Shown in pieces: positions 2,676 through 4,039 of a DNA stretch of 9,104 nucleotides. The notes under the pieces were generated by a model. It ran no database searches. It was given only the letters and a program-made list of their open reading frames with translations, and had not been told where the DNA came from. The stretch comes from a virus (lineage: Monodnaviria; Loebvirae; Hofneiviricota; Faserviricetes; Tubulavirales): the IMG/VR virus record IMGVR_UViG_2667527591_000001. One strand, 5' to 3'. Every line of letters starts with the position of its first letter. Position 1 is the stretch's first letter. The translations under genes and the position numbers were made by a program.

Positions 2676-4039
2676 CAGAGTTTTACCTCACGTTCAAATA
2701 ATGTACGGCGAGAAATAACAAAAACGCGTAACATGGTTATCATATAAATAGCATATTCAAGAACAGAACGAACATAATCGTCATAAGCTTTTGCAAAATG
2801 GCTTGTATCAATCTTGAAATTAATAGCGCCAATCAACGGAAGATCAAAGCTAAATTGTAAAATAAAAGGAAGAGCAGTTCCATTATTTGTATTTACCAGT
2901 TTGTCAATATTAACTGTAAGCCAATTGTTATTATCATGACTCTCACTTCCCTGTCCTGGCAAGTAATGCGAAAGCTCCCCTAAAGGGAAATCCCCATCAG
3001 GCAAAGAAGAAGCTATATTCTGACTAATATCTTTAATACCATTGTCCAGTGAATTTAATGCATTATTCATATCAGCCTGAGAAACAGAAAAAGCATTATT
3101 TAAATCATTCACTGACACCCATATTGTTTTTAACCAGCCCAAAATACCATCAAGCCAGCCATTGTCATCGCCGGATGAGCCACCGGATCCTGAACCTGAA
3201 CTACCGCTACCGGATGAACCGCCGGAGCCCGAGCCGGAGCCACCGCTACCGGATGAACCACCGGAGCCAGAACCTGAACCACCACTGCCGGATGAGCCGC
3301 CGGAACCCGAGCCGGAGCCACCGCTACCGGATGAACCACCGGAGCCAGAACCTGAACCACCACCGGAACTGCCGCCGCCTGGGTTACCACCACCGGAACT
3401 GCCACCACCTGAGCTACCGCCATCCTCCTTACCATCGGAGAATGCAGGATCTACAGCAACTGGTTTCCAGTCGGCAGTACAAACTGTATCATCATCGGGA
3501 TTACAAATAAGAGGATTACCGGTTGCCTCATAAATACACCCCTGCACATTAACATAACGGGTCCCGTCATCACCTTTATAAACATCAGAAAAAGTCATAC
3601 CATCAAGAACCGGACGAGAAAGACAAATCTCGTCAGTTGGCGGCTTATTATATTCAGGTGTCAAATCCCCCTCACCACCCTGAAAAGCAAGGGTGCAGGC
3701 TGTCCACTTTTGCTTGTCTGAATCCCAGACTTTATATGCTGACCACCGGGCACGGACAAAAGACCCGACAGTCGAAGGTGCATTAACAGGCGTTGAAAGT
3801 GGCACACCACAATAATGAATTATTCCGGAACATGCGTCATAACTGCCCGAACCACAGAAAAGATGACCGGCCGCCCTGGCTAATTTAATCGACGTCCCCG
3901 CGTCCGAATAATCTGTCCTGCAGGATGAATGGCCTGCACACTGAACAAGTGCATCCGGATTTTCTTTCTCTTCAGCGAAAGAAAACGAGGAAAAGAACAA
4001 AAACAGAAGCGGAATAATAAAGTGAATCAAACAAAACAC
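2675..4039 (-). CDS. pIII-like adsorption/minor coat protein with Gly/Ser linker
   Basis: 454 aa as listed. Hydrophobic N-terminal signal peptide (cleavage probably after SFSFA), a Cys-rich N-terminal domain (about 10 Cys), an 84-residue Gly/Ser linker, and a C-terminal hydrophobic anchor. The start is non-ATG: GTG at 4039 or in-frame TTG at 4030, with AGGAG immediately upstream. Confidence 0.82.
   Translation of the reverse strand: MFCLIHFIIPLLFLFFSSFSFAEEKENPDALVQCAGHSSCRTDYSDAGTSIKLARAAGHLFCGSGSYDACSGIIHYCGVPLSTPVNAPSTVGSFVRARWSAYKVWDSDKQKWTACTLAFQGGEGDLTPEYNKPPTDEICLSRPVLDGMTFSDVYKGDDGTRYVNVQGCIYEATGNPLICNPDDDTVCTADWKPVAVDPAFSDGKEDGGSSGGGSSGGGNPGGGSSGGGSGSGSGGSSGSGGSGSGSGGSSGSGGSGSGSGGSSGSGGSGSGSGGSSGSGSSGSGSGGSSGDDNGWLDGILGWLKTIWVSVNDLNNAFSVSQADMNNALNSLDNGIKDISQNIASSLPDGDFPLGELSHYLPGQGSESHDNNNWLTVNIDKLVNTNNGTALPFILQFSFDLPLIGAINFKIDTSHFAKAYDDYVRSVLEYAIYMITMLRVFVISRRTLFEREVKL
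3170..3421 (-). repeat. Intragenic tandem repeats (~39-bp unit) encoding the pIII Gly/Ser linker
   Basis: The protein shows about five consecutive 13-aa units (GGSSGSGGSGSGS). The DNA shows recurring ccggagccagaacctgaaccacc and gagccggagccaccgctaccggatga blocks. Confidence 0.85.

Follow-up and report, generated by a model that had tools for sequence, protein, structure and literature searches.

Does a long, highly repetitive glycine/serine tract in the attachment protein of a filamentous phage serve as a fixed spacer, or as a tether whose length changes by gain and loss of repeat units? The question is raised by the gene for a pIII (g3p)-like protein in a 9,104-nt stretch of viral DNA of the order Tubulavirales (IMG/VR virus record IMGVR_UViG_2667527591_000001), hereafter the window. 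A preliminary description, made from the sequence alone, placed a Gly/Ser repeat of about five near-identical 39-bp units in the pIII linker at 3170–3421 and proposed that it is prone to slipped-strand or recombinational length change. Based on the analysis presented here, the most probable explanation as a whole, to which a probability of about 85% is assigned, is that the tract encodes a disordered tether with a length-variable, in-frame repeat array, which would also act as a crossover point for protein modules.

The tract is part of an open reading frame (ORF) of 454 codons on the minus strand (2675–4039; GTG start at 4039, stop codon at 2675–2677). Residues 207–290 form an 84-residue run of 46 Gly, 36 Ser, 1 Asn and 1 Pro (98% Gly+Ser), which occupies exactly the originally reported positions 3170–3421, on the minus strand. 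The 13-residue unit reported along with it, GGSSGSGGSGSGS, is real, being a rotation of GSGSGSGGSSGSG, and the count of about five was fair: GSGSGSGGSSGSG occurs in four perfect copies (3203–3358), followed by an 11-residue partial tail (3170–3202). The 39-bp array does not, however, extend over the whole tract. It accounts for 3170–3358 (linker part 2, minus strand; residues 228–290, GSGSGSGGSSGSG ×4 plus SSGSGSGGSSG), whereas 3359–3421 (linker part 1, minus strand; residues 207–227) encodes GGSSGGGSSGGGNPGGGSSGG, a different, GGGSS-type pentapeptide repeat with a 15/30-bp period.

In coding order on the minus strand, the array is composed of the 39-bp units u1 (3320–3358), u2 (3281–3319), a second copy of u1 (3242–3280) and u3 (3203–3241). 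Adjacent units are only 77–87% identical as DNA, with exact identity found only between the first and the third, and the earlier wording of near-identical or perfect DNA units had to be abandoned. Nine of the 39 positions distinguish u1 from u2, and u3 differs from u1 at five and from u2 at four; all of these differences fall at third codon positions, and the units are identical as protein. Such third-position-only changes (nine, with none at first or second positions) indicate that selection keeps the tract Gly/Ser, but the pattern alone is also compatible with an antisense frame at 3162–3533, whose wobble positions coincide. Tandem Repeats Finder analysis of 3171–3363 gave 4.9 copies with a period of 39 bp (79% matches, score 256) and 2.5 copies with a period of 78 bp (93% matches, score 330), along with a separate 30/15-bp repeat at 3356–3422. 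The real period of the array is 78 bp. The longest exact direct repeat, 58 bp in two copies offset by 78 bp (3228–3285 and 3306–3363, no strand assigned), would lend itself best to slippage or unequal exchange; at the 39-bp offset the longest exact direct repeat is only 18 bp. After codon shuffling, the longest exact repeat was 14.9 ± 2.2 bp (maximum 28; 2000 shuffles), and after synonymous-codon shuffling with the protein kept it was 15.5 ± 2.5 bp (maximum 32; 2000 trials). These values are far below 58 bp, and therefore the repetition is no by-product of composition. All of the linker repeat units (39, 78 and 15 bp) are arranged head-to-tail and are multiples of three.

Comparison with relatives bore out the suspected difference in repeat number. 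The comparison loci of the window lineage, which were drawn from the IMG/VR collection, have flanks 98.8–99.7% identical to those of the window, share a GGNP junction and carry the GGATCC tail variant in all cases where the sequence runs through the tail. Four full units (u1u2u1u3) are present in the window, L001 (a complete chromosome), L017 and L019, five (u1u2u1u3u3) in L018, 10 (u1u2u1u3u3u3u3u4u3u3) in L022, and at least 13 ((u1u2)×5 u1u3u3, up to the contig end) in L021. The steps seen measure 39 bp (u3 duplications) and 78 bp (u1u2 duplications). An alignment of about 3.9 kb between L018 and the window shows 35 substitutions along with two gaps, one of 39 bp inside the array and one of a single base elsewhere; length changes are concentrated in the array. 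The u3–u3 junction holds 31-mers that are not present in the four-unit allele of the window, and therefore this junction was not assembled from window-type reads. In linker part 1, one GGGSS is missing from protein P0099, a representative of 34 database sequences; over its BLAST-aligned N-terminal half, P0099 matches the window protein at 100% identity. Among 78 cluster representatives with purely GGGSS/GGGNS linkers and the same flanks, the linkers measure 16–111 residues, with 74 of the 78 fitting 5n+1 residues, and in ten GGGSS-type pIII copies on complete chromosomes they measure 26–130 residues. Repeat number thus evidently differs between near-identical relatives.

The identification of the ORF product as an inovirus pIII/g3p attachment protein, and of the flagged stretch as the tether between its N-terminal domains and its C-terminal domain, is supported by Pfam, PDB and PHROG matches, by the inovirus gene order and by the unstructured state of the linker in a predicted model. 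In PHROG, the protein matches 'attachment protein' and 'virion structural protein' families. The N2 domain (about residues 131–200; 3440–3649, minus strand) has a Pfam Phage_Coat_A (PF05357) match at residues 129–174 (E-value, 6.7 × 10−9; 35.8 bits versus a cut-off of 20.8), and a PDB sequence search with residues ~135–198 best matched the G3P entry 4eo1 (E-value, 3 × 10−13), with further matches to 2x9a and to the fd N1/N1–N2 entries 1fgp, 1g3p and 2g3p. The search output does not name the phages of the first two entries; 4eo1 is presumably the TolA-binding domain of IKe, and 2x9a is taken to be from If1. N2 is, by these matches, a homologue of the domain through which the g3p of IKe, If1 and fd binds TolA. 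In a tblastn search against curated phages, the N2 domain alone was matched, in IKe and I2-2 (44% identity over residues 125–198 for IKe), and megablast of the pIII gene against the curated phage collection gave no match. The protein search with the linker and its low-complexity words deleted gave a cleaner list. The AlphaFold model, built from 20 homologues, is poor overall (mean pLDDT, the predicted local confidence score, of 41); residues 131–200 are its sole confident segment (pLDDT 66–79), and the linker is modelled free of secondary structure, with the lowest pLDDT values of all (24–28).

The remaining parts of the protein were delimited from position and conservation, and all of them lie on the minus strand. 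The hydrophobic N-terminal leader (residues 1–22; 3974–4039), read directly from the sequence and ending in SFSFA before EE, is a probable signal peptide. It is followed by the Cys-rich N1 domain (about residues 23–120; 3680–3973), which is conserved in relatives and presumed to be the primary-receptor-binding domain from its position, as in IKe g3p; N1 has no Pfam match and no PDB sequence match, and AlphaFold confidence is low for it. The C-terminal domain (residues 291–454; 2678–3169), defined by alignment conservation and starting with DDNGWLDGILGWL, is presumed to be the virion and membrane anchor. A long hydrophobic C-terminal helix is predicted by AlphaFold, at low confidence, at residues 423–453 (2681–2773), and no sequence homology of this domain to the C domain of the Ff phages (f1/fd/M13) was found. 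The true start of the gene is likely TTG at 4030 (451 residues), which lies 8 nt after an AGGAG motif. This motif overlaps GTG 4039, and therefore TTG 4030 is the more likely start. The RefSeq start of the homologue is the TTG equivalent to 4030, which shifts the residue numbers by 3. RefSeq annotates all genes of this inovirus family as 'hypothetical protein' except for Rep, Zot and secretin, and the tract marks the attachment protein and its domain boundaries in this poorly annotated Escherichia coli family.

The tract also lies at a mosaic boundary. BLAST comparison with relatives revealed breakpoints at window positions 2318, 3069, 3377 and 3609. At the gene level, hits H9–H15 cover query positions 1–689 and H16–H18 cover 670/683–1362; the split at 670–689 equals 3344–3363 of the window. 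The two repeat types of the linker meet within this interval at GGTGGT (3356–3361, minus strand), a microhomology common to GGGSS-type arrays and to the u2/u1 boundary of 13-residue arrays. As judged from these alignments, the junction coincides with the mosaic breakpoint, and therefore the linker looks like a crossover site for domain swapping. The pIII proteins of relatives are assembled from several N1 types, two unrelated N2 types (A, which is TolA-like, and B), the linker repeat families GGGSS, 13-mer, GGSTSGGSS and SSSSG, and at least three C-terminal types. As a rule, the 13-mer array comes after N2 type B (L003, L005, L030), and N2 type A is joined to a pure GGGSS linker (L002, L008, L013); the window combines N2 type A with 21 residues of GGGSS type and then the 13-mer array. 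Linker part 1 travels with the N2 type-A module and part 2 with the C-terminal module. Co-resident family members would give an opportunity for such exchange within one chromosome: that of E100341 carries L003 (471 residues, 13-mer type) and P0040 (454 residues, GGGSS type), with linkers of 85 versus 101 residues, and that of E200086 carries L031 and P0037 (GGGSS types of 489 and 429 residues), with linkers of 130 versus 70 residues. A natural variable-length tether at a mosaic boundary is relevant to receptor-binding-domain swaps and to engineering them at the linker.

Two further modules were observed during this comparison. In L003, L005 and L030, an unrelated, Cys/Asp-rich domain of about the same size takes the place of N2 (window 3377–3609). 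The precomputed annotation shows no Pfam match for it, and N1 and the C domain remain homologous; a possible alternative co-receptor domain is suggested by this. Positions 2318–3069, which cover pVI and, with it, the distal two-thirds of the C domain of pIII, behave as an exchangeable module of their own: in L008 and L011–L014, the sequence on either side is 95–99% identical, but this part cannot be aligned.

The anatomy of the tract, the identity of the protein, the mosaic breakpoint and the differing unit counts of near-identical relatives, all documented above, can be combined into one explanation. The Gly/Ser tract would be an intrinsically disordered tether, which links the head (N1 and the TolA-binding N2) to the C-terminal domain anchoring pIII in the virion tip. 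The array, built of two alternating synonymous 39-bp versions that make up the 78-bp higher-order unit, would have been joined at a 6-bp microhomology to what is left of another array, of GGGSS type. Because the units are multiples of 3 bp, slippage during replication or unequal recombination would shift the tether length and keep the protein intact; the recombination partners may be array units, tandem prophage copies or co-resident related phages. The same low-complexity tract may double as a crossover point for the head and anchor modules of different phages. The molecular mechanism (slippage versus recombination) and any phenotypic effect of tether length are inferred.

Several observations weigh against a length-variable tether, and they would fit an ordinary stable spacer, with apparent copy-number differences that result from faulty assembly where short reads fail to resolve the repeat, an account regarded as improbable. 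One-unit alleles (L011, L012, L014–L016) occur only in short-read assemblies made by Logan or MEGAHIT. In L030, a complete genome with flanks as in L014, the array reads h-u1-u9-u1-u2-u1-tail, and a de Bruijn graph collapse that skips the u1…u1 cycles of such an array would give exactly h-u1-tail. The one-unit alleles match this predicted product and may be collapse artefacts; for this reason they were downgraded as evidence of contraction and left out of the count. Many NCBI entries for pIII proteins of the family are partial and end inside the array at contig ends (P0099, P0100, P0102, P0103, P0105 and P0106), and the repeat is therefore a systematic breakpoint of short-read assemblies. The exact counts of the long arrays in the IMG/VR contigs L018, L021 and L022 could likewise be wrong. 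Moreover, 11 loci, nine of them complete chromosomes, agree on linkers of 83, 84, 85 and 85 residues in four array structures, the complete chromosomes coming from Gambia, Mozambique, Japan, Mexico, Mali, Pakistan and Bangladesh, and therefore the array is either fairly stable, showing no hypermutability over the divergence of the strains, or constrained in length. Both tandem prophage copies in L001 encode an identical pIII protein. On the other hand, collapse shortens arrays and does not create those of 5, 10 or 13 and more units; the u3–u3 junction of both L018 and L022 holds k-mers not found in the four-unit allele; and L021 expands (u1u2)n whereas L022 expands (u3)n, which are different units. 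The 15-bp variant in P0099 is well within read length, and the 26–130-residue range of GGGSS-type linkers holds even among complete chromosomes. The same kind of variation has been reported for the UPphi prophages and, within a few laboratory generations, for IKe, as far as the account given in PMC7307601 goes. As the array breaks and may collapse short-read assemblies, pIII length variants in databases need long-read confirmation.

Another account, which is still more doubtful, takes the tract mainly as a recombination joint for module exchange, with length variation as a by-product and not a result of within-lineage slippage. It draws on the chimeric linker, in which two repeat families are joined at the GGTGGT microhomology, on the BLAST breakpoint at about 3377 inside the linker, on the many combinations of N1, N2, linker and C-terminal types, and on the presence of co-resident relatives within single genomes; engineered swaps of receptor-binding domains at the Gly-rich linker yield particles that bind new target species (PMC12477597). 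Yet L018, L021 and L022 gain internal units only, with junction, tail and flanks unchanged, and therefore exchange with a different phage does not explain them, and the other breakpoints (2318, 3069 and 3609) lie outside the linker. Module exchange at the tract is, in any case, compatible with a length-variable tether and does not exclude it. A more far-reaching reading, which is rather unlikely, would make tether length an adaptive, rapidly tunable trait, with the tract as a joint for head exchange as well and 83–85 residues as a selected optimum. If so, the reach of the TolA-binding head would be tuned to host envelope geometry or to the repeat copy number of host tolA domain II, co-resident inoviruses would exchange receptor-binding heads at the Gly/Ser tract, and a length of 83–85 residues would suit common hosts. 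The possibility that the repeat belongs to a plus-strand gene can practically be dismissed. Frames at 3162–3533 (Pro/Glu/Asp-rich, 123 residues) and 3049–3510 are open and repetitive, and the variable positions of the former also fall at third codon positions; however, the reverse complement of GGY/TCN/AGY codons is stop-free, which makes open frames automatic. Only the minus-strand frame runs into flanks with Pfam, PDB and PHROG homology, its domains are conserved across about 100 homologues, and RefSeq annotates the minus-strand gene alone. The plus-strand ORFs over the repeat, which have no homology support, were rejected as compositional artefacts. The preferred reading thus remains that of a disordered tether with a length-variable array; the observation made in the preliminary description is partly confirmed, and its interpretation is supported.

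The surroundings of the gene follow the inovirus order of pVIII-like, pIII, pVI-like, pI/Zot and secretin genes, and all phage genes are on the minus strand, a small regulator excepted. The pVI-like minor coat gene (2316–2675, minus strand) has a weak match to phrog_1944 (E-value, 1.6 × 10−4), and its ATG overlaps the pIII stop codon (TGATG). On the other side of pIII lies the gene for a pVIII-like major coat protein of 86 residues (4091–4351, minus strand), for which PHROG gives only a weak match, to a family without known function; a GC-rich hairpin with a T-run (4053–4075; AGCGCCC-TCCG-GGGCGCT-TTTTTT on the coding strand) is located after this gene and just upstream of pIII. The pI/Zot assembly ATPase gene (1088–2299, minus strand) matches Zot (PF05707) and phrog_1675 ('protein I of M13'), the secretin gene (7858–9066) matches PF00263, and a GPA-type replication endonuclease is encoded at 5122–7221. 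Another tandem repeat, of 339 bp, occupies 1–1074 in the intergenic region from secretin to zot/pI, with three perfect copies and a 57-bp partial fourth; by blastn, relatives appear to carry about two copies (L001, L014) or about one (L011, L012). It could represent an origin, packaging or attachment region, or a mis-assembly. The end and the start of the window are contiguous in the tandem prophage L001.

Matches to the pIII gene were found in 19 of 5426 complete E. coli genomes, and those to the replication module in 40 of 5426; the listed hosts are mostly human, and stool is given as the source in several records. The best match, at 99.5% identity, is E. coli strain 100416 (NZ_CM128593.1), in which two tandem copies adjoin hipBA. 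Presumably, hipBA lies near the dif/terminus region; the E. coli dif sequence was not found in the window with up to three mismatches. Two chromosomal contexts were observed for this phage family: one adjacent to hipBA (L001, 13214–14802; L011, 284–1872) and the other at ybiB-hcxB (L006 and L010, 24507–25472 in both), where an IS110-family transposase gene directly follows the replication gene. In L004 (E. coli E300010), the pIII gene (1501–2924) is a pseudogene with a 1-bp frameshift in the N1 region, and RefSeq annotates only a 349-residue C-terminal ORF of it. No relatives were found among GTDB representative genomes in two scans, one with the pIII alignment and one with Rep.

Among known systems, the distal linker of Ff (f1/fd/M13) pIII resembles the tract in being a flexible Gly/Ser-rich tether of short tandem peptide repeats between the N-domains and the C-terminal anchor, and in adjoining a TolA-binding domain of the same fold family. 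In the cryo-EM map of f1, the homologous Ff linkers are flexible, disordered and invisible (PMC10175506). Ff pIII, however, has two linkers and the order TolA-binder then pilus-binder, whereas in the window protein the TolA-like domain comes after N1, from which just a short hinge, QGGEGD, separates it. The repeat of the window protein differs as well, its unit being of 13 residues, free of Glu and fused to a GGGSS remnant, and no sequence similarity to Ff pIII was detected outside the N2 domain. IKe g3p has the order N1, TolA-like N2, linker and C domain, as in the window protein, and it is the closest characterised phage protein by sequence (44%, residues 125–198). It is unlike the window protein in its repeat sequence, and the window phage differs further in its GPA-type replication protein and integrated prophage copies. 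Membership in Lineavirus (IKe, I2-2) is not indicated, with no megablast match and only pIII residues 125–198 matching. Only distant relatives of Rep, at about 30% identity, are present in the phage collection; most of the best phage matches listed for Rep (~30% identity) are to filamentous phages of Vibrio and to CTXphi RstA, and they do not include IKe or I2-2.

Changes in the length of the IKe Gly-rich region within few laboratory generations are attributed to Bruno & Bradbury (1997) in the passage of PMC7307601 that cites them; according to the same passage, lengthening of the region brought IKe no advantage under selection and had no effect on fitness. For the UPphi prophages of Enterobacterales, Shapiro & Putonti (2020) found no gene more variable than gene III, with 95 variants among 229 genomes, and most of this variation is in how many Gly-rich repeats join the N-terminal to the C-terminal domains (PMC7307601). 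UPphi and the window family are alike in being E. coli filamentous prophages with tandem integration near dif and variable Gly-rich repeats (PMC7307601). As compared by description only, UPphi differs in its GGGES repeat, its size of 7.56 kb and its IKe-like character, while the window family measures about 8.7–9.1 kb and has Gly/Ser-only repeats. The unit of ~8.7 kb in L001 and its position at hipBA resemble Ypfphi/CUS-1 as described (8.7 kb, dif-integrating; PMC4266046), a comparison likewise made by description. On the host side, E. coli tolA contains an in-frame coding repeat of variable copy number, and a changed repeat number lowered susceptibility to fd (PMC3477136). It is similar to the phage array in that an in-frame variable repeat sets the length of an extended segment, and in that TolA is the host protein expected to be bound by N2; it is dissimilar in being a host gene with an alpha-helical, Ala/Lys-rich repeat. 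Variation of the Gly-rich repeat number in g3p is thus documented for IKe and UPphi, and the general point is not new: the instability idea of the preliminary description is correct, yet it had been established before for related phages. The present analysis adds the phage family itself with its 13-residue unit, the 78-bp higher-order organisation of the DNA, the composite make-up of the linker and a caveat concerning assembly.

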